Below are positions 26,542 to 42,244 of a stretch of 58,454 nt of DNA, piece by piece. The first letter of the stretch is position 1, and the number at the start of each line of letters is the position of its first letter. The DNA lies in IMG/VR virus record IMGVR_UViG_3300043443_000324, positions 1 to 58,454 of that record; one strand, 5' to 3'. The translations under genes and the position numbers were made by a program. The notes beneath the pieces were generated by a model. That model worked only from the letters and a program-made list of their open reading frames with translations, was not told the origin of the DNA and did not search any database. The stretch comes from a virus. Taxonomy: Duplodnaviria; Caudoviricetes.

Positions 26542-26544
26542 GCC

Positions 26545-27070: not shown

Positions 27071-27084
27071 CAGGAGCACCCGAC

Positions 27085-27345: not shown

Positions 27346-27348
27346 ACC

Positions 27349-27612: not shown

Positions 27613-27616
27613 GACC

Positions 27617-28320: not shown

Positions 28321-28325
28321 ACACC

Positions 28326-28475
28326 GTGCACACGTCTCTCTGGCTGGCCTTCGCCGCCATCACCTTCGGCATGACGGGCATGGTCGCCCGCAGCACGATA
28401 ACCAGCGCCGTGGCCCTCGGGCTGGCCATCCTGTGCATGGTCGCCGCCATCCTCACCACGCCGCTGCCCGCATGA
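28326..28475 (+). CDS. Small two-TM membrane protein
   Basis: GTG after GAGGA; 49 aa, hydrophobic. Confidence 0.6.
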   Translation: MHTSLWLAFAAITFGMTGMVARSTITSAVALGLAILCMVAAILTTPLPA

Positions 28476-28891: not shown

Positions 28892-28941
28892 GCGTAGCAG
28901 TGGTATGGAGGGTCATCAGCAACGCAATGGAGTACCCGCCC
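28882..28941 (+). promoter_or_regulatory. Early promoter cassette P4
   Basis: TTGCAA-N16-TATGGA, CATCAGCAACG, GGAG. Confidence 0.8.
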
Positions 28942-29100
28942 ATGACCACCAAGACCGCCCGCCGCCCGTCCCGCGAACTGCGCGCCATGGCCTTCGCCAT
29001 CGCCGACGAGATCGAGACGGTCGCGCAGCGCTACATCGCACGGGGCTACAGCCGCAAGGCGGCTGTCACCCTCGCCATCACCCAGATCGCAGGAGCCTGA
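28942..29100 (+). CDS. Small early protein
   Basis: ATG after P4 SD. Confidence 0.7.
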   Translation: MTTKTARRPSRELRAMAFAIADEIETVAQRYIARGYSRKAAVTLAITQIAGA

Positions 29101-29103
29101 GCC

Positions 29104-29283
29104 ATGAGCTTCTTCAAGAACCGCCGCGACGACACCTGCACCTTCGTCTGCGACGACTGTGGCGTCGAGCACCAGCTCGACGGCACGGACTTCTTCGACG
29201 CGCTGGATGCCGCCAAGGACGACGGCTGGCGCGCACGGCAGGAGAGCGGCGACTGGCTGCACCTGTGCCCCGACTGCCTGTAG
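29104..29283 (+). CDS. Small zinc-ribbon protein
   Basis: CDDC ... GW ... HLCPDC; SD AGGAG. Confidence 0.75.
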   Translation: MSFFKNRRDDTCTFVCDDCGVEHQLDGTDFFDALDAAKDDGWRARQESGDWLHLCPDCL

Positions 29284-29294
29284 GAGAGACGGAC

Positions 29295-29540
29295 ATGCTG
29301 ACACCCGAGGAGGAGGCCCACGAGGCCCTGCACGACAAGGTAGAGCTGGCCGTGGCCGACCTGCTGGACGACGCCTTCGAGCACCACGAGTGCGGGGCCG
29401 ACGTGCTGGCCCGCATGCTGTGCATGTACATCACCGAGCCGAGTGCCGACGAGGAGCATGTCGGCGAGCTGCTGGCCATGGTGCTCTCCGCAGCGGCCAT
29501 GCGAGGCCTGATGCACATGCCGGTGGCCGGGCATGCGTAG
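29295..29540 (+). CDS. Acidic hypothetical protein
   Basis: SD AGGAG, high GC3. Confidence 0.7.
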   Translation: MLTPEEEAHEALHDKVELAVADLLDDAFEHHECGADVLARMLCMYITEPSADEEHVGELLAMVLSAAAMRGLMHMPVAGHA

Positions 29541-29627
29541 CTTGGAGCAACTGCGCTTCGAGGCGCAGGTCAACCTGTGGCTGTTCGACCAGTTCGGATG
29601 GCTGCCAGAGAACGAGGAGTTTGTGTG

Positions 29628-30542
29628 GTGAATGCAATTAATGAACTTATCGCCCGCTGGAACAGCGATGAAGGCAAGCCCTACAAGGGTAAGCTGATTG
29701 ACCGCGACAACTACGCCGAAGGCAACCTGTCCTGTATGTGCACGCAAGGCCAAGTCCTGCACGTTGTCGGCGGATGGAGTGCCGACATGTTGGCGGAAGC
29801 TGAACAGGCCGAAGCCGATGCAGCAACGGCGAAGTTACTGAACATCAGCCGCGCCCACGCGGTCCTGTTACGCAACACAAACGACGAGGTGGATGGCGTG
29901 CCCGCGATTGTCCTGACTGATCCGGGCGCTGTGCTTGGCGACCAGTGGAGCAAGTTGCTCGACTTTTGGTGGCATATGGATAGCCTTAACGATGACGATT
30001 GGCGTAAAGTGGCCGCTGCTGGGGCCGCTGCTTGGGCCGCTGCTGGGGACGCTGCTAGGGCCGCTGCTTGGGCCGCTGCTAGGGCCGCTGCTTGGGACGC
30101 TGCTGGGGACGCTGCTGGGGCCGCTGCTGGGGCCGCTGCTTGGGCCGCTGCTTGGGACGCTGCTGGGGACGCTGCTGGGGCCGCTGCTTGGGCCGCTGCT
30201 GGGGCCGCTGCTTGGGCCGCTGCTGGGGCCGCTGCTTGGGACGCTGCTAGGGCCGCTGCTTGGGCCGCTGCTAGGGCCGCTGCTTGGGACGCTGCTGGGG
30301 ACGCTGCTGGGGACGCTGCTGGGGACGCTGCTGGGGGCGCTGCTGGGGACGCTGCTGGGGGCGCTGCTGGGGACGCTGCTGGGGCCGCTGCTGGGGACGC
30401 TGCTGGGGGCGCCAGTTCTGAAATCCAAGGAACCGCAATTTTCAAGCAAGATGGCAGGCCGTTTTTCTTCCTCCCGATGTTCGGCTTTGCATCGCCCGAG
30501 GACATTCCGGCGCGTCCTGCTGATTATGGACTGGTGGCATGA
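29628..30542 (+). CDS. Protein with Ala-rich [ADG]AA[WRG] tetrapeptide repeat
   Basis: GTG 29628 after GAGGAG; globular N- and C-terminal parts flank the repeat. Confidence 0.8.
   Translation: MNAINELIARWNSDEGKPYKGKLIDRDNYAEGNLSCMCTQGQVLHVVGGWSADMLAEAEQAEADAATAKLLNISRAHAVLLRNTNDEVDGVPAIVLTDPGAVLGDQWSKLLDFWWHMDSLNDDDWRKVAAAGAAAWAAAGDAARAAAWAAARAAAWDAAGDAAGAAAGAAAWAAAWDAAGDAAGAAAWAAAGAAAWAAAGAAAWDAARAAAWAAARAAAWDAAGDAAGDAAGDAAGGAAGDAAGGAAGDAAGAAAGDAAGGASSEIQGTAIFKQDGRPFFFLPMFGFASPEDIPARPADYGLVA
30012..30407 (+). repeat. 33 tandem 12-bp units G[CAG]C GCT GCT [GTA]GG
   Basis: Directly visible; 396 bp. Confidence 0.95.
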
Positions 30543-30584
30543 CCGAGATTGAGAAGAAGCCCGCGCAGCACTGGAGGGGAAGAA

Positions 30585-30791
30585 ATGACTGACACCCCCA
30601 CCCACTTCCGCTTTCGCCTAGGCGACAAGGTGCGCAAGGTCCGTGGCTCGTCATGGCGCGGCACTGTCTGCGGTTGGTATAGCACCGACCACACGCCTGA
30701 GGGCTACAACGTCAACAGCGATTTTGAGCCGGGGTCTGTCCAGTGCTGGCCGCTGGCGGCGCTTGAGGCTTGGGAGATCGACAATGGATGA
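30585..30791 (+). CDS. DfrB / R67 type II dihydrofolate reductase homolog (SH3 fold)
   Basis: FRLGDKVRK..GSSWRG.V.GWYST..TPEGY.V.S..EPGSVQCWPLAALE aligns with R67; VQIY replaced by VQCW. Confidence 0.85.
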   Translation: MTDTPTHFRFRLGDKVRKVRGSSWRGTVCGWYSTDHTPEGYNVNSDFEPGSVQCWPLAALEAWEIDNG

Positions 30792-31068
30792 AATGATCGC
30801 AGCGATGGCGATTGCCATGTGTCAAAGCGCGTTAGGTGGCAAGCGCTGCCCTTGCGCCGAAACAGGCAAGTTCAACTGCCGCAACGAATACCCCGGTGAA
30901 CAGGCCACCGTCGCCTACAACGCCATGCGCGAGACGCTGGTGCCGGTGATGTATGCCGTGGAGGAGGAGGGCCACCCGATCATCAGCTACATCACCCGTG
31001 AAAAGCCTACCGAACAGGCAACCAGTGTTACACCCCTCTACGCACTCCCGGAGATCGACAATGGTTAA
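30784..31068 (+). CDS. Hypothetical protein
   Basis: GGAG SD; Cys cluster; VTPLYA C-terminal motif. Confidence 0.65.
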   Translation: MDEMIAAMAIAMCQSALGGKRCPCAETGKFNCRNEYPGEQATVAYNAMRETLVPVMYAVEEEGHPIISYITREKPTEQATSVTPLYALPEIDNG

Positions 31069-31243
31069 GGTGACACAGGCTGACCGCATCGCCGCCCTGA
31101 TCGCTGCCGGTGACAGGCTGGCGGGGTTTGCGGGGCATGATGATGGGTGCTCATCTGGAGGGCCTTACCCGTTCCCTGAAGATCGCTGCACCTGCGGCTA
31201 CACCGAGGCTTGGAAGCAGTGGAAGGAGGTGCGGGGTGAGTGA
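31061..31243 (+). CDS. Small Cys/His protein
   Basis: GHDDGC...CTCG; GGAG SD. Confidence 0.65.
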   Translation: MVKVTQADRIAALIAAGDRLAGFAGHDDGCSSGGPYPFPEDRCTCGYTEAWKQWKEVRGE

Positions 31244-31562
31244 GTCTTGCACTTGGCCGAACGGCACCTGCCAGCATTACGCTGAGAGGCAATCAAAACC
31301 TGACCCATGGGGGCGGGTCTGGATGCACTGCGAGGAAGGTCTATCTATGAGCAATGCCAGTCTTGCGCGGTTCATGGGGTTTTGCCTGCGCAATCGCATC
31401 AAGGTTGGCGATATATGGGCCTTTCAGCCTAGCTATCCACGGTCTTTGGTCACTGCGGCTGTGTGCCTAAAGCCAGAGCAATTTGAAGCATTTGAGCGGG
31501 AGACAGGTGGAAAGCTGCGAGAGCCTCCGAAGATCAAACTCAATTCAGGAGGCCACCCATGA
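31236..31562 (+). CDS. Hypothetical protein
   Basis: GTG after AAGGAGG; AT-richer codons. Confidence 0.6.
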   Translation: MSESCTWPNGTCQHYAERQSKPDPWGRVWMHCEEGLSMSNASLARFMGFCLRNRIKVGDIWAFQPSYPRSLVTAAVCLKPEQFEAFERETGGKLREPPKIKLNSGGHP

Positions 31563-31837
31563 CCAACCCCATGACTGAAGCCGCCGCGAGGGCGATACAC
31601 ACCAGAGTTAGTAGCTCAATGGGGGAAACACTTAGCTGGGATGATGAGTTTCCAGAGGTGCGCGCGGGATTCATTGCCGACGCCCAAGCCGCCATCACCG
31701 CCATCGAACCCATGATCCGCGCTGACGAACGCGCGAAGGTGGAGCGGGAGATTGTGGAGTGGTTGCGGGAACAAGACGGCCATGGATACGACCATATGAG
31801 GGCCGACTGCATCGAGGCCGGGGAGCATTTGAAATGA
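31559..31837 (+). CDS. Hypothetical protein
   Basis: SD AGGAGG; AAARAI, AQAAITA, IVEWLR..AD.IE.GEH motifs common in small phage proteins. Confidence 0.7.
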   Translation: MTNPMTEAAARAIHTRVSSSMGETLSWDDEFPEVRAGFIADAQAAITAIEPMIRADERAKVEREIVEWLREQDGHGYDHMRADCIEAGEHLK

Positions 31838-32007
31838 AAATAGGTGATACCGTCCGCAAGAAGCGCGGCTACCCATGGCCCGGCGTGATCGTGGCTGACT
31901 TCTTCAACCTCGCAGGCGAACGCCGCATCGTGGTTGAATGCACAGTGCCGGAAGTCGCTGGCGCGCTGCATATTTATAACCCGGAGCAGTTGGAGGTGAC
32001 GGGATGA
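31834..32007 (+). CDS. Second, more divergent DfrB-like SH3-fold protein
   Basis: IGDTVRKKRGYPWPGVIV..F.......VVE......GALHIYNPEQLE. Confidence 0.65.
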   Translation: MKIGDTVRKKRGYPWPGVIVADFFNLAGERRIVVECTVPEVAGALHIYNPEQLEVTG

Positions 32008-32660
32008 CCAACAGCGAGATCATCGCCTTCGCCGCGCGCCTCTTCCACGTCGACCCGGCGCTCATGCGCAAGGACTGCCGCAACCGGCACGTCTGCCGGG
32101 CGCGCTTCGCCCTCTACGCTGGCTTCATGCTGCGCGGCGAGCTGCGGGGCTTTCCGCCGTCGACCTCCCAGATCGGCCGCTGGTGCCACCGCGACCACAG
32201 CACCGTCATCTACGGCCTGCGCAAGGCGCACGCCCTCATGCAGGCCGACGCGGCCTTCCTCGAGGCCGTCTGCGAAATTGCAACGGTGACGCAAGAAAGC
32301 CCTTGCAACACGCCGTTGCGTCCTGTACGGGTCGTTCATCAGCAACCGAGGAGGAACCCCATGGACAACCCCGAATACGTCGAAGCCCGCATCAATGAGC
32401 TGCTGGCCAAGCTGGGCGAGAAGCGCATCGCCGTCTACTGGGACGGCGAACTGATCGAGCGCGACACGCCGCGCTGCTTCAACGTCTACTGGGAGGGCAA
32501 CGATACGCCCTACTGGCTGGAGGACTACCGCAGCCGCATCAGCATCCACACCGAGGAGAACCGCTGCCGCTACACTGTCGACAGCGCCCGCTACTACGAG
32601 GACATCGCCGCCAAGCTGGCCGAGTTCCTCCCCACCGCCATCATCGAGGAGGCAGCCTGA
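32004..32660 (+). CDS. DnaA C-terminal (domain IV) HTH protein, reading through P5 in frame into the next early gene
   Basis: R.RHVCRARF...STSQIGRWCHRDHSTVIYGLRK. Confidence 0.75.
   Translation: MTNSEIIAFAARLFHVDPALMRKDCRNRHVCRARFALYAGFMLRGELRGFPPSTSQIGRWCHRDHSTVIYGLRKAHALMQADAAFLEAVCEIATVTQESPCNTPLRPVRVVHQQPRRNPMDNPEYVEARINELLAKLGEKRIAVYWDGELIERDTPRCFNVYWEGNDTPYWLEDYRSRISIHTEENRCRYTVDSARYYEDIAAKLAEFLPTAIIEEAA
32303..32360 (+). promoter_or_regulatory. Early promoter cassette P5 (inside the DnaA-IV ORF)
   Basis: TTGCAA-N17-TACGGG, CATCAGCAACC, GAGGAGG. Confidence 0.75.
32361..32660 (+). CDS. Early protein from internal start
   Basis: Strong SD GAGGAGG and ATG right after P5. Confidence 0.7.
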   Translation: MDNPEYVEARINELLAKLGEKRIAVYWDGELIERDTPRCFNVYWEGNDTPYWLEDYRSRISIHTEENRCRYTVDSARYYEDIAAKLAEFLPTAIIEEAA

Positions 32661-32661
32661 C

Positions 32662-32934
32662 ATGACCCTGTCCGAGATCATCAACCCGTGGGGCGCGCTG
32701 CGCCGCCTCAAGGTCGCCCACGCGTGGCTCCGCGAGGAGTTCGAGAAGGAGCGTGCGCGGGCCGACCGCAGCGCGCGCAACGCCACCGACGCCCGCAACG
32801 CCGCCGACAATCACTCGCTGACGGCCATGGGCCGGGCGCAGGAGATCGACCGGCTGCGGCACCAGCTCCGGCAGGCGCACTTCCGCAACCCCAAGACGGG
32901 CCGCCTCGGCAGGCGCGGGGAGACGTTCCAGTGA
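32662..32934 (+). CDS. Hypothetical coiled-coil protein
   Basis: RNPKTGR C-terminal motif; SD GAGGAGG. Confidence 0.7.
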   Translation: MTLSEIINPWGALRRLKVAHAWLREEFEKERARADRSARNATDARNAADNHSLTAMGRAQEIDRLRHQLRQAHFRNPKTGRLGRRGETFQ

Positions 32935-33095
32935 GCCAGACAACCTACGAGCTGCGCAGCGTGCGCGGCAACCGACCCGTCTTCGCGTTTGACGACATCG
33001 TCAGGGCGCGGCAAGAGCAGGAGCGCGCCAGCGCACGGGGCGTCCGCCTCGCGCTGGTCCGCGTAACCCGTACCGAGGAAGTGATCGCCGCATGA
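32931..33095 (+). CDS. Small hypothetical protein
   Basis: GTGA overlap, GGAG SD. Confidence 0.6.
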   Translation: MSQTTYELRSVRGNRPVFAFDDIVRARQEQERASARGVRLALVRVTRTEEVIAA

Positions 33096-33349
33096 CCCCC
33101 ACCACCAAGGAAGACCGCGTCCGCGCCCTCGAGACGGCCATCGACCGCGCGGGCGGCATCATCCGCTTCAGCAAGGCGATGAACATCACGCATCAGGCCG
33201 TCTACAACTGGAAGCGCCGGGGCTGGGTGCCCGCCACGCAGGCGCTCATGATCGAGGCGATCTTCGCCGTGCCGCGCGCCGAACTCATGGAGCCGAGCCT
33301 CGCGGCCGTCCTGACGACGCCGCCGATCACGCACGACGACATCCTCTGA
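33092..33349 (+). CDS. Cro/YdaS-like HTH regulator
   Basis: AIDRAGG...FSKAMNITHQAVYNWKRRGWVP; upstream of primase. Confidence 0.8.
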   Translation: MTPTTKEDRVRALETAIDRAGGIIRFSKAMNITHQAVYNWKRRGWVPATQALMIEAIFAVPRAELMEPSLAAVLTTPPITHDDIL

Positions 33350-33379
33350 CGCCGCCTCCCCGTGGAGAGGGACAACGAC

Positions 33380-35431
33380 ATGACACCCAAAGTGCGCCCT
33401 ATCGCGCCGCACCTGCGCGCCCTCGACGCGCCTGAGCCGCTGCGTGCGCTGCCCTCATGGCTAATTTGGCGCTACGAGACCCACGCCGAAGAGCCGAAGC
33501 CCCGCAAGGTGCCCTACTACGCGGCAGGCCACCGCCGCTACGGCCAGCAGGGCAGCCCGAACGACCGGGCCAACCTGACCACCTTCGCTGCCGCCCGCGA
33601 CGCCGCCGCGCGGCTGGGCTTCGACGGCGTGGGCTTCGCCATGCTGCCCGACTGGCAGGTGACGGCCCTCGACGTCGACCACTGCGTCGACGCCGACGGC
33701 AACCTGCCGCCCGAGATCGCCGACATCGTGCGGCGCACCTACGCCGAGTACTCGCCCAGCGGCTCAGGCGTGCGGGCCTTCTTCACGGGCGCGCTGGGCA
33801 ACCACAAGAGCCCCGCGACGGCGGAGCAGTACGGGCTGGAGACCTTCAGCAGCACCGGCTTCGTGACGTTCACCGGCAACATCCTCGGCCACGTCGACAT
33901 CCTCGGCTACGAGGACAAGGTGGCGGCCCTGCCCCAGCCCCTGATCGACCTGTGCGAGAGGCGCTTCGGCAGCACCGCCTCCCGCTTCGACCCCGACGAC
34001 ATCATGGCGGGCTACGAGCCGAAGCTGGGCCTGTCCGTCGAGCAGATGGAAGACCTGCTGGCCGCCCTCGACCCCGACTGCGGCCGCGACGAGTGGGTGC
34101 GCGTCGGCATGGCCCTGCACCACGAGTGCGAGGGCGACGACACCGGCTTCGACCTGTGGAACGACTGGTCGGCGCTGGGCGGCAAGTACCCGTCCGAGGA
34201 GGCGCTGCGGCAGCAGTGGGACAGCTTCGAGCGCCGCAAGGGGCCGGGCCGCAGGCAGGTCACCATGGCCTCGGTCATCAAGATGGCCAAGGAGGCGGGC
34301 TACGTCCGCCCTCTGGAGGCGGCTACCGCTGACGACCTGCGCAAGGTAGCCGCCGAAGTAGCGCAGCAGGACTGGGCACCCCGCGCCGGTCTCATGCCGC
34401 CCGACTACGACGGGCGCTTCCCGTTCTTCCGGGCATCCGACGTGGCCAACCGGCCGCCGCTGGACTGGTGGATCAAGGGCGTGCTGCCCAAGGCCCAGAT
34501 CGGCGCGATCTTCGGCGCGTCGGGCAGCGGCAAGTCCTTCCTCGCCCTCGACATCATGGCGCACCTCTCGCTGGGCCTGAACTGGCGCGAGCGGCGCACG
34601 CGCAGGGCGAGGGGCCTCTACGTGGCCGCCGAGGGCGGCGCGGGCGTGGGCAAGCGCATCAAGGCGTGGGCGCGCAAGAACAACATCGACCTCGACGACC
34701 TCGACATTGCCGTCCTGACGGTCGCGCCGAACATCATGCTCAAGGACGACATCGAGGAGCTGGTCCGCGCCATGACGCTGGCCGGTGACTTCGACTACAT
34801 CGTCCTCGACACCTACGCGCAGGTGACGCCCGGCGCGAACGAGAACGCCGCCGAGGACATGGGCCTCGCGCTGGCGCACTGCCGGGCGATCCACGAGGCG
34901 ACGGGGGCCATGGTCATCCTGATCCACCACAGCGGCAAGGACGCGGCGCGCGGCGTGCGCGGCTGGTCGGGCATCAACGCGGCGCTGGACTTCGCCATTG
35001 AGATCACGCGCATCGAGGACGGCGACTACCGCGAGGCCAAGATCACGAAGATGAAGGACGGCGAGGACGGCCTGAAGTTCGGCTTCAAGCTCGAGATCGT
35101 CGTCACCGGCATCGACAGCGATGGCGACGAGGTCACGAGCTGCGTCATCACCGACGCCGACGCGCCGGTCGAGGAGAAGCCCATCGGCAAGGGCATCCGG
35201 CGGCGCGGGCGCATGGAGAACCACATCCTCGAGACGATGGCCACCTTCGGCGTCAGCGACACGGTCAAGATCGTCGACCTCGTCGACCGCGCCGTGCAGA
35301 CGTTCCCGGCGCCGGAGCCGGGCGAGCGCGACACGCGCCGCCAGCGGATTGTCCGGGCAATTCAGACGCTTGCCAAGGAGAAGGACGGCCCGCTGTCTTT
35401 GGACAACAACGTGGTCATTTTTTATGAGTGA
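33380..35431 (+). CDS. Primase-helicase (AEP-type primase, PriCT-2, RecA-like AAA_25 helicase)
   Basis: LDVDHC, YAEYSPSGSGVR, RDEWVRVGMAL..WNDWS..GGKY, GASGSGKS, IVLDT, IHHSGKD, RGWS. Confidence 0.9.
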   Translation: MTPKVRPIAPHLRALDAPEPLRALPSWLIWRYETHAEEPKPRKVPYYAAGHRRYGQQGSPNDRANLTTFAAARDAAARLGFDGVGFAMLPDWQVTALDVDHCVDADGNLPPEIADIVRRTYAEYSPSGSGVRAFFTGALGNHKSPATAEQYGLETFSSTGFVTFTGNILGHVDILGYEDKVAALPQPLIDLCERRFGSTASRFDPDDIMAGYEPKLGLSVEQMEDLLAALDPDCGRDEWVRVGMALHHECEGDDTGFDLWNDWSALGGKYPSEEALRQQWDSFERRKGPGRRQVTMASVIKMAKEAGYVRPLEAATADDLRKVAAEVAQQDWAPRAGLMPPDYDGRFPFFRASDVANRPPLDWWIKGVLPKAQIGAIFGASGSGKSFLALDIMAHLSLGLNWRERRTRRARGLYVAAEGGAGVGKRIKAWARKNNIDLDDLDIAVLTVAPNIMLKDDIEELVRAMTLAGDFDYIVLDTYAQVTPGANENAAEDMGLALAHCRAIHEATGAMVILIHHSGKDAARGVRGWSGINAALDFAIEITRIEDGDYREAKITKMKDGEDGLKFGFKLEIVVTGIDSDGDEVTSCVITDADAPVEEKPIGKGIRRRGRMENHILETMATFGVSDTVKIVDLVDRAVQTFPAPEPGERDTRRQRIVRAIQTLAKEKDGPLSLDNNVVIFYE

Positions 35432-35457
35432 ACTTGCAATTTTTTGCAGATAGGGGG

Positions 35458-35520
35458 TTGCAATCTCCTGTTTAGGCGTTATCTAGAGTTCATCAGCAAC
35501 GCCAAACAGGAGATGAACTC
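35458..35520 (+). promoter_or_regulatory. Early promoter cassette P6
   Basis: TTGCAA-N16-TATCTA, CATCAGCAACG, AGGAG. Confidence 0.8.
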
Positions 35521-35832
35521 ATGGCTACCAACCCCGTTATCGACTTCGACGCCGCCCTCGTTGACCGCCTCGGCGACATCAAGGCGCAGATCGCCGACCT
35601 CAAGCGCATCGAGGCTGACCTCGTCGCCCGCCTCGCCGACAGCGGCGCGGACGCCATCGACGGCCGCTTCTTCCGCGCCACCGTCAGCCAAGTGGCCGAG
35701 CGCCAGTCGCTCGACGCCAAGGCCGCAGAGGCCAAGCTGCGCGAGCTGGGTGTCGACGGCCGCTGGTTCAGCAAGAACCAGAAGGTCACCAAGGGCTACA
35801 CGACCGTCAAGGTCGTGGCGCGGAAGGCCTAA
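35521..35832 (+). CDS. Early hypothetical protein (coiled coil plus beta)
   Basis: LVDRLGDIKAQIADLK; follows P6. Confidence 0.8.
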   Translation: MATNPVIDFDAALVDRLGDIKAQIADLKRIEADLVARLADSGADAIDGRFFRATVSQVAERQSLDAKAAEAKLRELGVDGRWFSKNQKVTKGYTTVKVVARKA

Positions 35833-35836
35833 GCCG

Positions 35837-36013
35837 GTGCTGGGCATCCTCGCAGCAGAGTTCACGTCGCGCGGCAGGGGCCTGCCCGCGACGCTGGACA
35901 TCAACCGCATCATCGACGGCCGCCGGTCGCGCGTCATCTCGTTCAGCGTCGGCGGCAAGCGCGAGGCGCGCAAGCTGGCCGAGCGCTACGGCGCGCAGCC
36001 GTGGAACTTCTGA
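35837..36013 (+). CDS. Small hypothetical protein
   Basis: GKREARKLA..YGAQPWNF. Confidence 0.6.
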   Translation: MLGILAAEFTSRGRGLPATLDINRIIDGRRSRVISFSVGGKREARKLAERYGAQPWNF

Positions 36014-36024
36014 GGAGACAGGAA

Positions 36025-36225
36025 ATGCGTGACAGAGACACCTACCGCAGCATGGACACCGAAGACCTGCTGCTCGAGGCCCGCGAGATGGGCATCGACC
36101 CCGAAATGGCCGTCGTGATCGCCGAGCGCCTCGACGTCCTCTACAATCAGGCTTGGCACTACCACACCACCCACGAGAGCATGGGCGGGCGCTACACCTT
36201 CAACAACAGGAGCGAATACGCATGA
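36025..36225 (+). CDS. Hypothetical protein
   Basis: SD GAGGAG. Confidence 0.65.
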   Translation: MRDRDTYRSMDTEDLLLEAREMGIDPEMAVVIAERLDVLYNQAWHYHTTHESMGGRYTFNNRSEYA

Positions 36226-36698
36226 GCTACAAGATCGAGATCAACGCCGACAGCATCAGCGAGTTGGCGGGCAAGCTGCTGGCGCTGGCCGCGCAGATGC
36301 AGGCCACGCCGGTCGACCCGGTGATGCCCGAGGTCCGCGAGGCACCGAAGCCGAAGCGCGCCAAGGCCGAGAAGCCGGTGGAGGTCGCCGAGGCGCCGGT
36401 GGGGGAGCCTGCTGCCCAGCAGGACACCGCAGCATCATCGGACCCGGCTATTATGCCGGAAAGCGATACCCGGACATCCGACACTGGCCTGCCTGCAACG
36501 AACACTGTCTCCCCTTCTGAGGCCGTCGTCTCGCTTGACTTCGAGAAGGACGTCGCGCCGCTGGTGTTGAAGGCCGTGGCCGTGAAGGGCAAGCCGTGGG
36601 TGCAGGAGGTGCTGGCGCAGTTCGGCGTCGAGCGCGCCTCGCAGGTGCCCGATGAGCGTCTGCCTGAGCTGGTGGCAATTGTGGCGGAGGCGGTGTGA
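36222..36698 (+). CDS. Replication-module protein with probable -1 frameshift variant ending at 36520
   Basis: SD AGGAG; helical C-domain VLAQFGVERASQVP; GGGGGAG at 36401. Confidence 0.8.
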   Translation: MSYKIEINADSISELAGKLLALAAQMQATPVDPVMPEVREAPKPKRAKAEKPVEVAEAPVGEPAAQQDTAASSDPAIMPESDTRTSDTGLPATNTVSPSEAVVSLDFEKDVAPLVLKAVAVKGKPWVQEVLAQFGVERASQVPDERLPELVAIVAEAV

Positions 36699-36943
36699 TG
36701 GGCTACGAGATCGTCAAGGACAAGCCGCTGCCCCCGCGAGCTAAGAGGGGTGGGCGGCGCTTGAAGTACCCCTTCGCTGCGATGGAAGTCGGCGATGCGT
36801 TCTGCGTACCCGTTGACGGGTGCGCAAAACGCCAAGCCAATCTCATCACTCGCGCCGCAGCGTACGCCAAGCAACACGGCCCCCATAAGAAGTTCTCCAC
36901 GCGCCTGCTTGACGGCGATGTGTGGGTCTGGAGGATCGCATGA
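36698..36943 (+). CDS. Small putative DNA-binding protein
   Basis: KYPFAAMEVGDAF.VP ... VWRIA. Confidence 0.7.
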   Translation: MGYEIVKDKPLPPRAKRGGRRLKYPFAAMEVGDAFCVPVDGCAKRQANLITRAAAYAKQHGPHKKFSTRLLDGDVWVWRIA

Positions 36944-38154
36944 GCGCCCACGCCCGGCTCAGCCCCAGCGGTGCACACCGCTGGATGGCCTGCCCCGGCA
37001 GCGTCGTGCTGGAGGCTGACTACCCGGACACGGGCAGCCTCTACGCCGACGAGGGCACCGCCGCGCACACGCTGGCCTCGTGGTGCCTCGAGGACGGCAT
37101 GGACGCCGACCAGTACCTCGGGGGCGAGATCGTCGTCGGCGAGCGCAAGTTCGTCGTCGACACCGCCATGGCCGATTTCGTGCAGGACTACGTCAAGCTG
37201 GTGCGGGAATACGCCGAGGGCGGCTCGCTGTTCGTCGAGCAGCGCGTGCCCATCGGCCACCTGACCGGCGAGGCCGACGCGGGCGGCACGTCCGACGCGG
37301 TGGTCCTGTGCCGCAACGAGATGGTCGTGATCGACCTGAAGTACGGCATGGGGGTCAAGGTCTACGCGGAGGACAACCCGCAGCTCATGATGTACGCGCT
37401 GGGGGCCTACGAGCAGTTCGGCCTCGTGTGGGAGGGCGACATGGTCACGATGGTGATCCACCAGCCGCGCCTCAACCACGTCGCCGAGTGGTCGATCCCG
37501 CTGCGCGTGCTGCTGGACTTTGCGGCGCAGGTGCGCGACGCGGCGGCCACCGTGGCCGAGGCTGTGTCGGTCGCCGACATCGGCGTCGACAGCTACCTCA
37601 ACCCCGGCGAGAAGCAGTGCCGCTTCTGCAAGGCCAAGGCGTCGTGCCCGGCCCTGCGCGCCGAGGTGGCCGACGTTGTCCACAGCACCGCGACACTGGA
37701 CGACTTCGCCGATCTGGTGCCGCAGGTGCCGGACAGCCAGACGGGCGACAACTACCTGAGCGTCGCCATGTCCAAGGTCGATCTGGTCGAGCAGTGGTGC
37801 AAGGCCGTGCGCGCCGAGGTCGAGCGCCGCCTGCTGGCGGGCCAGACTGTCGAGGGCTACAAGCTCGTCGAGGGCAAGCGCGGCAACCGGAAGTGGGCCG
37901 ACGCGGAAGCTGTGGAAAAGCTGCTCAAGTCGTTTCGCATGCGGCAGGACGAGATGTACGATCTCAGCCTCATCAGCCCCACCAAGGCCGAGAAGCTGTT
38001 CAAGGAAAACCCCAAGCGCTGGGCGAAGGTGCAGGAGCACGTCACGCAGAGCGAGGGCAAGCCGTCCGTGGCACCCGCCACTGACAGGCGGCCAGCAATG
38101 GCCGTCCCATCGGTCGCCGACGACTTCGGCGGCCTCTTTCAAACTGACGACTGA
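36940..38154 (+). CDS. Cas4-like PD-(D/E)xK exonuclease (DUF2800 family)
   Basis: HARLSPSGAHRW.ACPGS, EGTAAH, GTSD, IDLKYG.G, NPQL..YALG, CRFCKAKASC. Confidence 0.9.
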   Translation: MSAHARLSPSGAHRWMACPGSVVLEADYPDTGSLYADEGTAAHTLASWCLEDGMDADQYLGGEIVVGERKFVVDTAMADFVQDYVKLVREYAEGGSLFVEQRVPIGHLTGEADAGGTSDAVVLCRNEMVVIDLKYGMGVKVYAEDNPQLMMYALGAYEQFGLVWEGDMVTMVIHQPRLNHVAEWSIPLRVLLDFAAQVRDAAATVAEAVSVADIGVDSYLNPGEKQCRFCKAKASCPALRAEVADVVHSTATLDDFADLVPQVPDSQTGDNYLSVAMSKVDLVEQWCKAVRAEVERRLLAGQTVEGYKLVEGKRGNRKWADAEAVEKLLKSFRMRQDEMYDLSLISPTKAEKLFKENPKRWAKVQEHVTQSEGKPSVAPATDRRPAMAVPSVADDFGGLFQTDD

Positions 38155-38170
38155 TAAAGGATACCGTACA

Positions 38171-38755
38171 ATGGCTACCAAGATCATGCTCAAGGGCATC
38201 ACGATGGCTTTCCCGGCGCTGGCCGAACCGCAGTCCTTTGGCGAGGGTGAACCCGCCTACGGGGCCAAGTTCCCCATCGTCCCGAACAGCGAGCACCAGA
38301 AGCTCATTGAGCAGGCCATCATGGCCGAAGCCAAGGAGGCGTGGAAGGACAAGGCCGACAGCGTGCTGGCCATGCTGATCGAAGACGGCAAGGTCGCCTT
38401 CACGAAGAAGGTCTACCGCTCGAAGAAGACCGGCGAGGCATATCAGGGCTTCGAGGGCGCGCACTACCTGTCGACCCGCAATGCGAAGACCCAGCCGACG
38501 GTCTTCAACCAGTACGGCGAGCCGCTGTCGTCCAAGGGGGACATCGAGCGTCAGGCGTTCAGCGGCGCGGTCGTCAACGCCTCGGTCGAGGTGTGGGCGC
38601 AGGACAACAAGTGGGGGCGCCGCATCAACTGCACCCTGCGCGGCGTCATGCTGACCGGCGAGGGGCAGAACTTCGGCGGCAGCGCGGCCCCGGCCTCGGC
38701 TGACGAGTTCGCCGAACTGGCCAAGGCCAAGGCCGAAGCGGACGACGTGCTGTGA
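38171..38755 (+). CDS. Single-stranded DNA-binding protein (DUF2815 / gp2.5-like)
   Basis: AFPALAEP, QDNKWGRRINCTLRGV, acidic tail; between exonuclease and polymerase. Confidence 0.85.
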   Translation: MATKIMLKGITMAFPALAEPQSFGEGEPAYGAKFPIVPNSEHQKLIEQAIMAEAKEAWKDKADSVLAMLIEDGKVAFTKKVYRSKKTGEAYQGFEGAHYLSTRNAKTQPTVFNQYGEPLSSKGDIERQAFSGAVVNASVEVWAQDNKWGRRINCTLRGVMLTGEGQNFGGSAAPASADEFAELAKAKAEADDVL

Positions 38756-38757
38756 CG

Positions 38758-39012
38758 ATGGCGCGCGAGCCGGAGCACGGCACCAACGACCGCCTGCGGC
38801 TGCTCGTCGAGCGCGTGGAGCGCCTCGAGGAGGAGAAGAAGGGCATCGCCGAAGACATCAAGGATGTCTACGCGGAGGCCAAGGCGGTCGGCTTCGACGC
38901 CAAGATCATGCGGGAGGTCATCAAGTTCCGCAAGATGAAGCCGGACGACCTTCGGGAGCGCAATGCGCTGCTGAATATCTACGCCGCCGAGCTGGGTCTG
39001 GACTTGCTCTGA
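38758..39012 (+). CDS. gapR: GapR (DUF2312)-like nucleoid-associated protein
   Basis: RLRLLVERVERLEEEKKGIAEDIKDVYAEAKAVGFDAKIMREVIKFRK. Confidence 0.9.
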   Translation: MAREPEHGTNDRLRLLVERVERLEEEKKGIAEDIKDVYAEAKAVGFDAKIMREVIKFRKMKPDDLRERNALLNIYAAELGLDLL

Positions 39013-39029
39013 CCCTGCCGCTATAGACT

Positions 39030-39177
39030 GGGCGCAGCGGCCCCGTAAGCCTTCTGGCTGTGGGTGCTAAGGCCGCTGCGCCCTTTCCTTCGGTGAGGGC
39101 TGTGACGGAACGTGGTTCACTCCTCGTTGCTGATAACCGGCACAGCTCTCTCCCAAGGAAAGGGAATATCAGCCCCT
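39030..39177 (+). ncRNA. Structured RNA / polymerase leader with loop antisense to the early-leader motif
   Basis: Stem 39030-42/39071-83; stems 39081-90/39155-64 and 39095-104/39141-50; loop CACUCCUCGUUGCUGAU (39118-34). Confidence 0.65.
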
Positions 39178-41142
39178 ATGAGCACTCTCCACCTCGACCT
39201 CGAGACCTTCTCCGAGACGCCCATCAAGCACGGCGCGCACCGCTACGCCGAAGACGCCGAGGTCATGCTCGTCGCCTTCGCGTGGGACGACGAGCTGGTG
39301 GCCGTGTGGGACTTGACCACGGGCGAGAAGAACCTCGGCAACGTCCAGATGCTGGTCGACAGCGCCGACCGCGTCGTGATCCACAACAGCGCCTTCGACC
39401 GCACCGTGCTGCGCCACAGGGGTGTGCATATTCCTGTGGATAAAGTTGAGGACACGATGGTCCTCGCCCTGCAGCACAGCCTGCCCGCGTCGCTGGGCAC
39501 GCTCTGCGACGTGCTGGGCGTCCCGCAGGACAAGGCCAAGGACAAGGACGGCAAGAAGCTCATCCAGCTCTTTACGAAGCCGCGCCCGAAGAATACAAAG
39601 ATCAGGAGGGCAACGCGGGAGACGCACCCGGATGAGTGGCAAAGGTTCATCGAATACGCCCGCCTCGACGTGGACGCGATGCGAGCCATACGTGGACGGC
39701 TGCCGCGTTGGAACGATAGTCACTCTGAGCGCGAACTGTGGCTCCTCGACCAAGGAATTAATGACCGTGGTGTCGGAGTCGATATTGACCTCGCCCGATC
39801 CGCTCTCCGAGCTTTTGGACGAGCTTCGCGATCTCTGGCCGCTCGTGCAGGAGTTCTGACCGGCGGCGCGGTGGGCAGCGCGACGCAGCGCACGGCATTC
39901 CTGCAGCACCTGCGCGACGCCCACGGCCTCGACGCCGACGACATGACCGGCGCGACGGTGACGAAGCTGCTGCGCGAGGAATTGACGCCGGAGCTGCGCG
40001 AGCTGCTGGAGATCAGGCAGCAGGCCGCCGCGACGTCGCCCGCCAAGTACAAGGCCCTGATGGACGCCGCCTCGAGCGACGGGCGCCTGCGCGGGACGAT
40101 CCAGTTCTGCGGCGCGGCGCGCACGGGGCGCGACGCGGGGCGCATCTTCCAGCCGCAGAACCTGCCGCGCACGCCCGACTGGTTTGACGGCGAGGTGCAG
40201 GAGGCGACCATCGCGGCCTTCAAGGCCGACGCCGAGGACGTCCTGTGGGAGAACGTCAGCGACCGCTGCGCGTGGGCCGTGCGCGGCTGTCTGGTGGCCG
40301 AGCCGGGCAGGAAGTTCGCCATCGCCGACCTGTCGAACATCGAGGGCCGCGTGCTGGCGTGGCTGGCGGGCGAGGACTGGAAGATCGAGGCCTTCAAGGC
40401 CTACGACCGGGGCGAGGGGCCCGACCTCTACAAGGTGACTGCCGGGCGCATCCTGAGCAAGGACGCGGCCGACGTCACGAAGGAGGAGCGCCAGACGCAG
40501 GGCAAGGTGCCCGAGCTCGCGGGCGGCTACGGCGGGGGCGTCGGGGCCTACCGGAAGATGGGCGGCAAGGTCTTCGACGCCATGGGCGACGAGCAGATCA
40601 CCCAGATCGTGCAGGCGTGGCGCAAGGCGCACCCGGCGACGACACGCCTGTGGTACAACGTCGAGGGCGCGGCGCGGTCGGCCATCCGCGCGCCGGGCGA
40701 GAGCTTCGACGTGCGCGGCCTCCTGCGCTTCGACACGGCCATCGGCCCCGACGGCGTCGACTACGTCCGCTGCCGCCTACCCAGCGGCCGCTACCTGCTC
40801 TACCGCAAGATGCACATCAACGAGGACGGCCAGCTCCTCTACGAGGGCATGAACCAGTACACGCGCAAGTGGGAGTGGCTGGAGACCTACTACGGCAAGC
40901 TGGTCGAGAACATCGTGCAGGCCGTGGCGCGCGACGTGTTCATGACCGGCATGCGCCGCGCCGAGCTGTCTGGCTACGACGTGGTGCTGCGCGTCCACGA
41001 CGAGCTGGTCTGCGAGGTGCCGGACCACGGCGACTACACGCACACGCACCTCGCCGAGATGATGGGGACTAACCCCGCGTGGTCGCTGGGCTTGCCGCTG
41101 TCGGCGGCGGGTTTTGAGACCCGCAGATACAGAAAAGAATGA
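39178..41142 (+). CDS. polA: DNA polymerase family A with 3'-5' exonuclease
   Basis: LDLETFS, HNSAFDR, YARLDV, QPQNLPR, ADLSNIEGR, GKVPELAGGYG, VHDE. Confidence 0.95.
   Translation: MSTLHLDLETFSETPIKHGAHRYAEDAEVMLVAFAWDDELVAVWDLTTGEKNLGNVQMLVDSADRVVIHNSAFDRTVLRHRGVHIPVDKVEDTMVLALQHSLPASLGTLCDVLGVPQDKAKDKDGKKLIQLFTKPRPKNTKIRRATRETHPDEWQRFIEYARLDVDAMRAIRGRLPRWNDSHSERELWLLDQGINDRGVGVDIDLARSALRAFGRASRSLAARAGVLTGGAVGSATQRTAFLQHLRDAHGLDADDMTGATVTKLLREELTPELRELLEIRQQAAATSPAKYKALMDAASSDGRLRGTIQFCGAARTGRDAGRIFQPQNLPRTPDWFDGEVQEATIAAFKADAEDVLWENVSDRCAWAVRGCLVAEPGRKFAIADLSNIEGRVLAWLAGEDWKIEAFKAYDRGEGPDLYKVTAGRILSKDAADVTKEERQTQGKVPELAGGYGGGVGAYRKMGGKVFDAMGDEQITQIVQAWRKAHPATTRLWYNVEGAARSAIRAPGESFDVRGLLRFDTAIGPDGVDYVRCRLPSGRYLLYRKMHINEDGQLLYEGMNQYTRKWEWLETYYGKLVENIVQAVARDVFMTGMRRAELSGYDVVLRVHDELVCEVPDHGDYTHTHLAEMMGTNPAWSLGLPLSAAGFETRRYRKE
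39435..39443 (-). promoter_or_regulatory. Perfect DnaA box inside the polymerase gene
   Basis: TGTGGATAA, in a local patch of atypical codons. Confidence 0.4.
39632..39859 (+). CDS. Candidate overprinted gene (+1 frame) inside polymerase
   Basis: GGAG 10 nt upstream; polymerase codon bias breaks down over this interval. Confidence 0.45.
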   Translation: MSGKGSSNTPASTWTRCEPYVDGCRVGTIVTLSANCGSSTKELMTVVSESILTSPDPLSELLDELRDLWPLVQEF

Positions 41143-41152
41143 GTAAAATCAT

Positions 41153-41449
41153 ATGTTTACTCAGCTCAACCCGCACCTGCCGCTCGACACGCCCAAGGGC
41201 GCGGGCTACGCTGTCGGCGTCATCGACTACGGGCTGGAGCACAGCCTCCTGTGGGTGGTTGCCCTGAGCGCCAGCGGCGAGATATGGTGCGTGCCGAACC
41301 GCGAGGTTCGCATGCCCGCCAACTGGTCCGCAGGACGGAGGTTACATGACACCGGCATCGAAGCTGCAGGAGCGCCTGAAGAAGCTGGTGCAGGGGAGCG
41401 GCGGCCAATACCGCAAGATGCGCTGGGAGGGCCGCCGGGGCTGCCCTGA
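41153..41449 (+). CDS. Conserved hypothetical protein
   Basis: QLNP.LPLDTPKG.G.A..VIDYGLEH.LLWVV. Confidence 0.7.
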   Translation: MFTQLNPHLPLDTPKGAGYAVGVIDYGLEHSLLWVVALSASGEIWCVPNREVRMPANWSAGRRLHDTGIEAAGAPEEAGAGERRPIPQDALGGPPGLP

Positions 41450-41645
41450 CTGCTTCATCTGGTGGGAGTGGCCGAGGGCCGCCTTCGTCGAGGTCAAGGC
41501 CGGGGACGACCGCTACAGCAAGCTGCAGGCCCGCGAGGTCGAGCGCATGCAGGCGGACGGCCTGCCGGTCTACACGGCGCGAACTGAGGCCGACGTCGAC
41601 TGGATCGTCGAGCGTGTGAAAAAAGGTGTTGCAACGCCTGATTGA
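41346..41645 (+). CDS. VRR-NUC endonuclease
   Basis: GRRGCPD, FVEVKA, SKLQARE; GGAGG SD. Confidence 0.85.
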   Translation: MTPASKLQERLKKLVQGSGGQYRKMRWEGRRGCPDCFIWWEWPRAAFVEVKAGDDRYSKLQAREVERMQADGLPVYTARTEADVDWIVERVKKGVATPD

Positions 41646-41690
41646 ATGTGGTACAAGGCGCTCATCAGCAACGAAGAAGGAGTGTCCACC
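41629..41690 (+). promoter_or_regulatory. Early promoter cassette P7
   Basis: TTGCAA-N17-TACAAG, CATCAGCAACGA, AAGGAGTG. Confidence 0.8.
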
Positions 41691-41867
41691 ATGTCCAAGA
41701 CCTACACCGCCTACGCCGTCTACGAGAACGGCGACCGCGCAATATACGAGGGGCTGACCAAGGCTGCCGCGCTGCGCCGCTACGCCCGGTTCCAGCGCGA
41801 AGCCGACAAGCACCTCGTTGGCTCGGCAGGCCCGATCAAGAGCTGGGGCTGGAGGCTCGAGGCGTGA
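41691..41867 (+). CDS. Small early protein
   Basis: ATG after P7 SD. Confidence 0.75.
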   Translation: MSKTYTAYAVYENGDRAIYEGLTKAAALRRYARFQREADKHLVGSAGPIKSWGWRLEA

Positions 41868-41869
41868 GC

Positions 41870-42019
41870 ATGTACCAAGCAGTGAGCCTTCCAGATGGTT
41901 CGCCGTTCCGCATTGCGGATACGCCGTGCGCCTCGCTTGCAGAGTGCGTCAAGCGCGCGCAGCAGACCTTCGGCGAGGGCAAATACACCATAGAGCGCAT
42001 AAGGAGGGTCAAGGCGTGA
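41870..42019 (+). CDS. Small hypothetical protein
   Basis: GAGG SD, operon position. Confidence 0.55.
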   Translation: MYQAVSLPDGSPFRIADTPCASLAECVKRAQQTFGEGKYTIERIRRVKA

Positions 42020-42153
42020 GCAAGCTCGAAGCCGAGATGAAGTCCCTCGCCGCCCGCGTCCAGCAACTGGTCGCGGGCGGCATGAGCCGAGACCGCGCCA
42101 TGATGCTCGCCGTCATGGAGGCGGGCGGCAAGATCACGATTGTGAAAGGTTGA
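42016..42153 (+). CDS. Small hypothetical protein
   Basis: GTG after AAGGAGG. Confidence 0.65.
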   Translation: MSKLEAEMKSLAARVQQLVAGGMSRDRAMMLAVMEAGGKITIVKG

Positions 42154-42188
42154 TTAGTCAGGGTGACCCAATTTTTTTCATTCAGGGG

Positions 42189-42244
42189 TTGCAACGTCAG
42201 GTTGCGTGTGCCATAAGGGTGCATCAGCAACGGAGTACCAAGTC
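42189..42244 (+). promoter_or_regulatory. Early promoter cassette P8
   Basis: TTGCAA-N17-CATAAG, CATCAGCAACG, GGAGT. Confidence 0.8.

Follow-up and report, generated by a model that had tools for sequence, protein, structure and literature searches.

The window analysed here is a complete virus record of the IMG/VR database (IMGVR_UViG_3300043443_000324; 58,454 bp) with direct terminal repeats. On its + strand, a gene encoding an 86 aa GapR-like DNA-binding protein (38752-39012; Pfam PF10073 GapR_DNA-bd, E 2.3e-31) is followed by the gene for a 654 aa family A DNA polymerase (polA; 39178-41142), the translation of which shares 56.7% identity with the polymerase annotated in Caulobacter phage RW. 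The 165 nt gap between the two genes (39013-39177) folds into two hairpins, and the apex of the second carries a segment complementary to a short motif repeated at eight putative early promoter-leader sites of the same genome (hereafter leaders P1 to P8). An initial annotation, made from the sequence alone, had proposed that this hairpin acts either as a switch opened by the early messages or as an RNA that silences them in trans. The analyses presented here confirm the observation behind that proposal and support its interpretation in part.

A structured RNA between gapR and polA

The region 39013-39200 folds at -87 kcal/mol, compared to -66.05 ± 4.45 kcal/mol in shuffled sequences (z = -4.71), with none of 200 shuffles folding as well. 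Together with the comparative evidence given below, this bears out the fold anticipated in the initial annotation and identifies it as a conserved, strand-specific RNA structure of the + strand. Every position and pairing listed there for the stem, its loop, the GGUU/AACC closing pairs, the TATCAGC sequence next to the start codon and a preceding 13-bp hairpin is present in the sequence.

The first hairpin (hairpin 1; 39030-39083, + strand) consists of a 13-bp GC-rich stem that is variable in sequence and covaries among relatives, RNAalifold predicting 10 pairs, each with compensating changes in some sequences. A CTATAG box (39021-39026, + strand) lies 3-8 nt before it, and an alignment of 37 relatives shows CTATA(G/A/C) conserved in the same position. 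The box resembles the TATAGT -10 element of promoters in a distant group of relatives (L176-L178) and is a possible -10 element of a promoter for the leader RNA; a simple sigma-70 scan did not call it. The tail of hairpin 1 (CTTTCCTT; TCTGTTCT in relatives) is weakly U-rich, real terminators of this genome carrying runs of seven T, and hairpin 1 is not among the nine terminator-like sites returned by a scan whose 3-8 nt limit its loop exceeds. The U-poor tail and the scan argue against a real terminator, and hairpin 1 does not show the GC-rich stem-loop running directly into a U run that defines an intrinsic terminator.

The second hairpin is built on a main helix (helix P2) of 22 pairs in three blocks (5' strand 39081-39104, 3' strand 39141-39164, + strand), which encloses an apical domain. 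Its lower part pairs 39081-39090 (CCCTTTCCTT) with 39155-39164 (AAGGAAAGGG), and its upper part pairs 39095-39104 with 39141-39150 in 10 bp that include one G-U pair. The Shine-Dalgarno sequence of the downstream gene is AAGGAAAGGG itself (39155-39164), within the 3' strand of helix P2. Its burial in the stem, pointed out in the initial annotation for this phage, extends to all members of the family: a purine-rich lower 3' strand of helix P2 is found 3-14 nt before the start codon in 44 of 44 distinct sequences.

Within the apical domain, GGTT (39114-17) pairs with AACC (39135-38), enclosing the 17 nt (39118-39134) CACTCCTCGTTGCTGAT that had originally been described as an open loop. The exact 17-mer is unique, and three matches are found with up to three mismatches against 0.23 expected. 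Both the minimum-energy fold and the family consensus place a small apical hairpin of five pairs here (helix P3; 39111-39126, + strand; CGTGG at 39111-15 with CCTCG at 39122-26), the loop and 3' arm of which carry a CUCC anti-Shine-Dalgarno sequence. Helix P3 takes part of this CUCC, leaving an unpaired stretch of about GTTGCTGATAA. The exposed antisense segment of the original drawing therefore stands, but not all 17 nt are open, and on these models the loop is better drawn as a small CUCC-carrying hairpin followed by a free GUUGCUGAUAA. Among relatives, helix P3 takes the forms GCGGG/CCUGC, GCUGG/CCGGC and ACAC/GUGU, and its register differs in a sister clade represented by genome G005 (15 unpaired cells). 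The antisense segment, which we term the anti-leader (CGTTGCTGATAAC, 39125-39137, + strand), is mostly single-stranded and overlaps the complement of TATCAGC. The mean unpaired probability of its 9-mer is 0.68, compared to 0.40 for the whole element, across 46 folded variants; in 44 of these the 9-mer forms an unpaired 3' bulge between helices P3 and P2, the remaining two being false motif matches outside the element. A near-identical strain (contig from run X15) differs from the window within 39113-39135 by one base added behind 39113, two added behind 39124 and one lost at 39135, indels that leave the 10-mer of the apex (39125-39134) intact.

A polymerase search of viral contigs yielded 80 loci; with the window's own locus included, the apical motif is present in 51 of 81. 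In relatives, the element always lies 3' of a conserved GapR-like C-terminus (...LG(L/M)DLL*) and a CTATA(G/A) box, and the gene 3' of it may be polA, a small open reading frame (ORF) starting MKLTIPQIR or another starting MIKAIETRYKGY. From 56 sources, a covariance model built from 26 sequences returned 55 full-length sense matches at E <= 1e-13, which represent 44 distinct sequences. Each of five near-complete genomes holds exactly one sense copy, and the model located four further elements in metagenome contigs. It detected no element in phage RW, in L176-L178 or at more distant polymerase loci (L057-L081, L165-L168). Phage RW shows the same gene order and has neither the leader motif nor the anti-leader motif; hairpin 1 is retained in RW, as is a short hairpin sequestering the Shine-Dalgarno sequence. 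Searches of the whole window against Rfam 15 gave no match at gathering thresholds, and at E <= 10 the region 38950-39250 gave 13 weak matches to generic hairpins (microRNA precursors) or ar7, all well short of their thresholds, the best scoring 19.8 bits where 80.6 would be needed; no transfer RNA or transfer-messenger RNA was found. We conclude that the element is a new RNA family, strongly supported and widespread in a group of freshwater phages, whose 44 distinct members mark the start of the replication module for annotation purposes. One record (L053, genome G007) was set aside, its element being divergent (36 bits), with no shared leader motif found and with repeated 8-mers that are coding. 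In the same genome, a more distant relative, a 13-bp unit (GGCCAATTTAATC-like) is repeated in tandem about 25 times (L106, 16285-16600), beside TTGCAGAACTGC repeats at 15796-15830.

Both hairpins are predicted by RNAalifold from 37 distinct sequences, with compensating changes in 24 of 30 pairs. In the covariance-model alignment of the 44 distinct sequences, 95.7% of helix P2 cells are paired and 16 of its 22 pairs have changed on both sides; none of 500 shuffles attains any of five measures, and sliding the partner strand by 1-3 columns reduces pairing to 44-54%. This alignment is fitted to the model and hence biased towards the structure, and the independent MAFFT/RNAalifold analysis agrees with it. 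Three closing pairs placed in the model are unsupported (51% paired), and helix P3 is paired in 83% of cells, with three of five pairs changed on both sides. G-U pairs are far commoner than A-C mismatches, by 20 to 7 in helix P2 and by 45 to 2 in helix P3, and the + strand, as sense RNA, is therefore the folded molecule. Scores under the covariance model are likewise 72-113 bits for the sense strand and 18-48 bits for the antisense strand.

RNase III sites separate messages in the early RNA of phage T7 and in the lambda N leader, and the fold described above could be read in a similar light, as an element that serves processing, stability or termination and has no antisense role. Hairpin 1 would then end or protect the upstream message, helix P2 would be an RNase III site whose cleavage frees the Shine-Dalgarno sequence, and the apex would be a determinant for a protein or RNase. 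The dimensions of helix P2 suit this role: at about two helical turns with small internal mismatches, its blocks of 9-10, 2 and 10-11 pairs, interrupted by single mismatches, reach the ~20 or more bp of near-continuous double-stranded RNA found at such sites; the fold is very stable, and hairpin 1 is GC-rich and followed by its weakly U-rich tract. That tract is, however, far poorer than the runs of seven T at the genome's terminators, the scan did not call hairpin 1, and hairpin 1 is dispensable in L005/L006, where a natural deletion has removed the 3' half of the GapR-like gene together with the 5' arm of hairpin 1 and has left helix P2, the apex and the downstream partner intact. The complementarity and co-evolution with the leaders and the start region, to which we now turn, would also be left unexplained. 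As a complete account this seems to us quite improbable; a processing or stability role may well hold in addition to an antisense one.

Complementarity to early leaders and its co-evolution

The 10-mer ATCAGCAACG occurs 18 times in the window when one mismatch is allowed, compared to 3.99 expected, and none of 100 shuffles attains this count. Eight + strand copies between 24992 and 42232 share the same setting, each lying 5-6 nt after a TTGCAA-N16/17-TAnnnn sequence and being followed, 22-29 nt further on, by an ATG that has a Shine-Dalgarno sequence. The motif is exact in leaders P3 (26776-26785), P4 (28915-28924), P6 (35492-35501; the nearest of the eight upstream of the element), P7 (41664-41673) and P8 (42223-42232). 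One mismatch is present in P1 (24992-25001, after TTGCAA at 24959) and P2 (26016-26025, after TTGCAA at 25983), which both read ATCAACAACG, and in P5 (32338-32347; ATCAGCAACC), which heads an operon with a Cro-like gene and the primase-helicase gene. Relatives follow the same promoter plan, TTGCAA-N7-TTGCA-N~14-(T/C)ATCAGCAAC-N-GGAG-N-ATG, and the distant group L176-L178 (polymerase 46% identical) has a clear host-type promoter, TTGCAT-N16-TATAGT-N4-7-TCAACAAC-AAGGAG. The simple sigma-70 consensus scan calls none of the eight window sites because their -10 elements lack the final T. Since the L176-L178 motif begins about where transcription should start, the leader motif can reasonably be taken as the 5' end of the early RNAs.

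The architecture of these promoters is itself repetitive. In the window (24959-42232, + strand) and in genomes G001-G004, GTTGCAAC, itself palindromic, occupies the -35 position and a second (G/A)TTGCA follows 13 bp later; the reverse complement of the leader motif contains TTGCT, and the promoters of RW (L124) have TGCAAC-N6/7-TTGCAA in place of the window's box plan. This repeated plan suggests a box-reading factor.

The apical sequence CGTTGCTGAT is the exact reverse complement of ATCAGCAACG, and 39125-39134 is the only minus-strand copy of the 10-mer that lies in a non-coding gap. As in antisense pairs of the RNA-OUT/RNA-IN type, the complementary segment is exposed: it provides an exact complement of 9-10 nt to five of the eight leaders and a complement with one mismatch to the other three, in agreement with the assignment made in the initial annotation. 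Predicted duplexes of the window's leaders with the apical domain range from -18 to -32 kcal/mol (P7 -29.4, P5 -32.4). In P5, about 24 of the 27 positions from the motif to the start codon are complementary to the apical domain in a hand alignment, and the covariance model picks this leader in antisense (32329-32371; 14.1 bits, E 0.9). Among relatives the segment is invariant while the flanking stems vary, with GTTG and TG invariant in alignment A2.

Since the apex, read in reverse complement, resembles a typical leader with its Shine-Dalgarno sequence (ATCAGCAACGAGGAGTG), the locus might be mistaken for a degenerate ninth promoter-leader cassette or for a minus-strand start site. The minus strand, however, has no TTGCAA, no -10 element and no ORF, as had been noted at the outset, the G-U excess identifies the + strand as the one that folds, the sense strand scores higher, and the covarying stems are conserved in 44 distinct sequences; we regard this explanation as close to negligible. 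The apex was also considered as an internal + strand promoter, GTTGCT-N6-GTTGCT approximating TTGCAA-N7-TTGCA, but the window, the sister clade and several subgroups lack the first of these boxes, and this candidate was therefore rejected. Likeness to the 3' end of 16S rRNA, DnaA boxes, IHF sites or boxA presumably fails on order or on sequence.

Co-evolution of the anti-leader with its targets was assessed over non-redundant contigs in which both the element and one or more leaders were detected. Of these, 29 carry GTTGCTGAT; each of the 29 has leaders of the form xTCAGCAAC or xTCAACAAC, CCAACAAC being absent throughout, and in the sister clade all 10 contigs with GTTGTTGGT have xCCAACAAC leaders. 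The sister-clade leaders read ACCAACAAC, with six promoter-linked copies in G005 and four each in L163 and L127, and the change amounts to two complementary substitutions, made in one segment on one side and in at least six separate leaders on the other. Because the polymerases of this clade are 89-91% identical, the co-change counts as a single evolutionary event. In L175, the segment (GTTGCTGA) abuts helix P2 and both leaders (CAGCAACGAAGGAGAC) are continuously complementary to it over 12 nt, including the Shine-Dalgarno sequence; in G009, the segment reads GTTGCTGAG and the one leader starts CTCAGCAAC. Complementarity is maintained in the sister clade, L175 and G009, as it is in three versions of a pairing with the element's own start region described below. 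Predicted duplex energies lie between -23 and -31 kcal/mol for partners from one clade and between -12 and -20 kcal/mol for partners from different clades, and the L175 segment gives -31.3 kcal/mol with its own leaders versus -19 to -25 kcal/mol with others. The flavour of the Shine-Dalgarno sequence beside the motif matches as well, GGAG occurring with CUCC and AGGGA with UCCCU.

Nature thus offers the segment/leader allele pairs GUUGCUGAU/AUCAGCAAC and GUUGUUGGU/ACCAACAAC, two mutually orthogonal pairs that permit a clean compensatory test. Two variant elements, L143 (CCUGCUGAU) and L221 (GCUCUGAU), predict other leaders; neither contig holds a promoter-linked leader, and a viral scan and one metagenome scan with the L143 polymerase gave no longer relatives of either type. 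Genome G005 (L103/L104) has one promoter-linked leader of the main-clade type (ATCAGCAAC) among its six ACCAACAAC leaders, which may be an imported cassette escaping the local anti-leader.

Coordinated change could also arise at the DNA level, if ATCAGCAAC were an asymmetric operator at +1, through which a Cro-like or HTH_3 protein would shut off the early promoters, and the copy before polA were one more site, placed in an RNA structure by chance: with one protein reading every site, these would likewise be expected to change in concert. The fixed place of the motif in promoter-like sites with TTGCAA and TTGCA boxes, the TTGCT in its reverse complement, the helix-turn-helix (HTH) proteins encoded at 33092-33349 and 28433-28891, and the presence of a related motif in L176-L178, where there is no RNA element, all sit well with this view. 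It leaves unexplained why the single inverted copy is always found where a covarying RNA structure is unpaired, why the adjoining anti-Shine-Dalgarno sequence has the flavour of its lineage, why complementarity reaches 12-24 nt in L175 and in leader P5 of the window, and why the 3' flank of the segment covaries with an RNA partner; the 10-mer, moreover, shows no visible dyad symmetry. We consider a DNA site very unlikely. The co-change of segment and leaders suggests that an RNA-on-RNA switch lies between the expression of the early genes and that of the replication genes.

Own-start pairing and the proposed control

A second potential partner of the anti-leader lies within the element itself. 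The sequence TATCAGC (39167-39173, + strand), just ahead of the polA start codon (39178-39180), is a putative internal target, and ATCAGC is found just before the downstream start codon in 27 of 40 GTTGCTGAT elements, where the segment is complementary to 9-10 nt. Three versions of this match occur, GAUAAC in the segment with GUUAUC as partner (10 elements), GAUACA with (U/A)GUAUC (12) and GAUCC with GGAUC (2), and three further GTTGCTGAT elements match their own start more weakly, among them that of the window (7-8 bp, -9.4 kcal/mol). Covariation links the 3 nt that follow GAU to the 3 nt that precede AUCAGC: position 1 pairs in all 27 elements (25 A-U, 2 C-G), position 2 in 25 (11 A-U, 14 C-G) and position 3 in 13. 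The three compensating versions therefore show that the segment engages in RNA-RNA pairing. The resulting helix attains 9-11 bp in 18 of 32 distinct main-clade sequences and reaches the A of the start codon; its extra pairs use positions that a 5'-terminal leader beginning with A would lack, which fits an internal target read by the same segment.

The alternative pairing of GCUGAUA with UAUCAGC suggested in the initial annotation is thereby supported by compensating change, but only within part of the family. The partner is absent from all 12 distinct sister-clade elements, where the longest complement is 3-5 nt, and from 11 of 32 main-clade sequences, and it is lacking in the subgroup in which polA follows directly; a general pseudoknot with the sequence before the ATG was accordingly rejected as a family-wide feature and kept as a second target specific to a clade. 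Since the segment is invariant in the 12 distinct sister-clade elements without this partner, something besides pairing in cis must maintain it. Taken with the equally invariant segment of the polA-direct subgroup, this indicates that the leaders are the common partner and the own start an added one.

The geometry of the own-start pairing is constrained. Only 0-3 nt link helix P2 to the own-start partner, and with A-form geometry an intact 22-bp helix should for this reason keep the partner away from the apex. In the common type, lower helix P2 (-13.8 kcal/mol) and the own-start helix (-13.0 kcal/mol) are about equal in energy. Pairing would then require either that lower helix P2 opens or that two molecules pair.

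These properties are what a translational lock acting purely in cis would be expected to have: the leader would control its own downstream gene, through a two-state switch between two helices of near-equal energy that the short linker should keep from coexisting, and its likeness to the early leaders would be historical, the start region having descended from a leader cassette. The enclosure of the Shine-Dalgarno sequence in helix P2 in all members and the three compensating versions of the own-start pairing agree with this. Such a lock fails to account for the invariance of the segment in the 12 sister-clade and 11 of 32 main-clade elements that lack the partner, and for the conservation of the CGUU half of the segment, which is unused in cis pairing, yet is its most conserved part and matches the AACG of the leaders; the sister-clade segment has changed with the leaders and not with its own tail. 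We judge a lock of this kind unlikely as the whole explanation.

The reading that we prefer, and to which we give an even chance, is that the element is an antisense anti-leader, which pairs with the 5' ends of early messages and with its own initiation region and so ties early-message expression to the replication genes. Under this reading, the gap between gapR and polA would encode, on the + strand, a structured RNA that leads the replication-gene block and in which helix P2 locks the Shine-Dalgarno sequence of the first downstream gene and the apex, beside the CUCC hairpin, presents 9-13 nt of unpaired anti-leader (GUUGCUGAU(AAC) in this phage). The anti-leader would pair with the common 5' end of early messages, AUCAGCAAC(G), produced from about eight host-type promoters, often extending into the Shine-Dalgarno sequence. 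In most members it would also pair with (GU)UAUCAGC(A), directly before its own downstream start codon, and because the same nucleotides are used, the two pairings exclude each other. The translation or stability of early messages would in this manner be tied to the expression of the replication genes. As to the sign of control, we favour a stable leader fragment, possibly accumulating through its stability or after cleavage in helix P2, that would block ribosome binding on early messages as IS10 RNA-OUT does on RNA-IN, with its own initiation region as one more target, for which the early leaders would compete. With the opposite sign, early leaders would free the polymerase start.

A more elaborate proposal, which we advance tentatively and hold somewhat less probable, is that early messages carry a common 5' tag and that one structured anti-tag in the replication leader switches translation from the early to the replication phase. 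The own start region would then be a competing internal target, and the timer would have diversified into orthogonal allele pairs in sister clades. A single RNA segment does appear matched to a sequence shared by every early message, the match having been kept by co-evolution.

Several observations weigh against an anti-leader directed at the early messages. Leaders P1 and P2 place an A opposite a C of the segment, and the variants within a genome are not wobble-compatible; the leaders of G002 vary at positions 1-2 with no change in the segment, and within the main clade cognate duplexes are no better than non-cognate ones. The co-variation of leaders and segment appears to come down to about three lineage events, one of which rests on a single leader. 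The covariation with the leader motif that the initial annotation had called for is present, in that the exposed segment tracks the motif across lineages, but L176-L178 have TCAACAAC leaders and no element in the available 8.5-16 kb; the leader motif must therefore have a life of its own. The stoichiometry of one anti-leader gene against eight promoters is awkward, part of the CUCC sits inside helix P3, and the phage's Cro-like and HTH_3 proteins could read the motif as DNA. The element precedes whichever gene follows gapR rather than polA specifically, and the missing own-start partner in the sister clade and the polA-direct subgroup counts here as well. The starts of the early RNAs are deduced from the 5-6 nt that separate the motif from a weak -10 element. 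Finally, the sequencing-run listing places the stretch or part of it in DNA runs from 13 studies, and no RNA run with raw reads was found there to contain the phage. Six runs listed as possibly RNA hold small shares of it, as contigs only, and are probably DNA; the four inspected say nothing on transcript starts or ends.

Genomic context and comparison with known systems

Genes on the + strand from ~24.9 to 44.3 kb make up the early and replication block, and the flanks on both sides are read from the minus strand. Upstream of gapR, the block includes the primase-helicase gene (33362-35431), then small genes, a DUF2800 PD-(D/E)XK exonuclease gene (36922-38154) and a gene for a Gp2.5/Enc34-like single-strand-binding protein (38171-38755); polA is followed in gene order by a VRR-NUC nuclease and then an SNF2 helicase. 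The closest named phages are Caulobacter phages RW, KcrB, RLK and GB2A, with a polymerase identity of 56.7% and the same gene order.

Several other early genes deserve mention. An early 174 aa protein (27796-28320, + strand) has a domain resembling the alpha-subunit C-terminal domain of RNA polymerase (PF03118, E 2.2e-07), which is unusual in a phage, and might act at the A/T-rich tracts upstream of the TTGCAA promoters. Two candidate early regulators are the Cro/YdaS-like HTH protein (33092-33349, + strand), in the P5 operon directly before the primase-helicase gene, and the HTH_3 protein (28433-28891, + strand), in the P3 block. The early block also encodes a glycine-zipper protein of membrane type (29935-30552, + strand; PF13488, E 9.4e-13). 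Among the relatives, the polymerase gene is 0.7-0.9 kb longer in RW (L123, 4001-6883), L048 (3001-5883) and L221 (2475-5180), and the query matches it in two pieces, a pattern that fits an inserted intein or homing-endonuclease segment.

Global control of early messages after transcription is familiar from phage T4, where RegA and RegB shut them off at or near the Shine-Dalgarno sequence and where a translational operator hairpin for gp43 precedes the DNA polymerase gene. RegA/RegB and gp43 act through proteins, whereas here the reader of the early leaders would be RNA; if the proposed control holds, the element would do with RNA what T4 does with proteins in its early shut-off. The stoperators of mycobacteriophage L5 are likewise short, asymmetric, intergenic motifs, placed in one orientation relative to transcription, and serve as DNA sites for the repressor; in the system described here, by contrast, one copy has the opposite orientation; it sits at unpaired positions of an RNA structure that covaries, and itself covaries with an RNA partner. 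The c4 antisense RNA of phages P1 and P7 derives from the leader of the operon that it controls, and its exposed loops pair with downstream sites of that transcript that cover a ribosome-binding site. It uses two loops on two targets of one operon in a temperate phage, whereas the present element has one segment, a 22-bp Shine-Dalgarno lock and targets at separate promoters, and the Rfam C4 family gives no match to it even at E <= 10.

RNA-OUT is complementary, through its first 35 nt, to the initiation region of RNA-IN, and this pairing keeps ribosomes from binding (PMC5006887). The RNA-OUT/RNA-IN system of IS10/Tn10 resembles the control proposed here in that ribosomes are blocked by a folded antisense RNA, base-paired to the target's 5' end and initiation region. 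RNA-OUT is transcribed opposite a single target, to which it is perfectly matched over 35 nt, whereas the anti-leader is encoded elsewhere, matches over 9-13 nt (~24 with bulges), forms part of an mRNA leader and has about eight targets, with a 5' tag in common. These targets are 2.5-14 kb away on the same strand, and in that respect the element is trans-encoded.

Small RNAs acting through a short exposed seed that pairs with several messages near the ribosome-binding site, the phage RNAs VpdS, PreS, 24B_1 and OOP among them, offer a further parallel (PMC12197685). Those phage RNAs, as far as the available text of that source describes them, have host targets or single phage genes as targets; none acts at a tag common to the phage's own early messages and none is embedded in the leader of a replication gene. 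The literature searched contained no description of the element or of a phage RNA aimed at a tag common to all early messages, and the accessible text of the paper on the RW genus (PMC11053796) holds no mention of promoter, hairpin or stem-loop. The target set would accordingly be new, known phage antisense RNAs acting on one phage gene or on host genes. We rate the RNA family as new and the antisense control as one of a known sort in a new form: by analogy, the element appears closest in working principle to RNA-OUT/RNA-IN and to c4, and is a member of neither.

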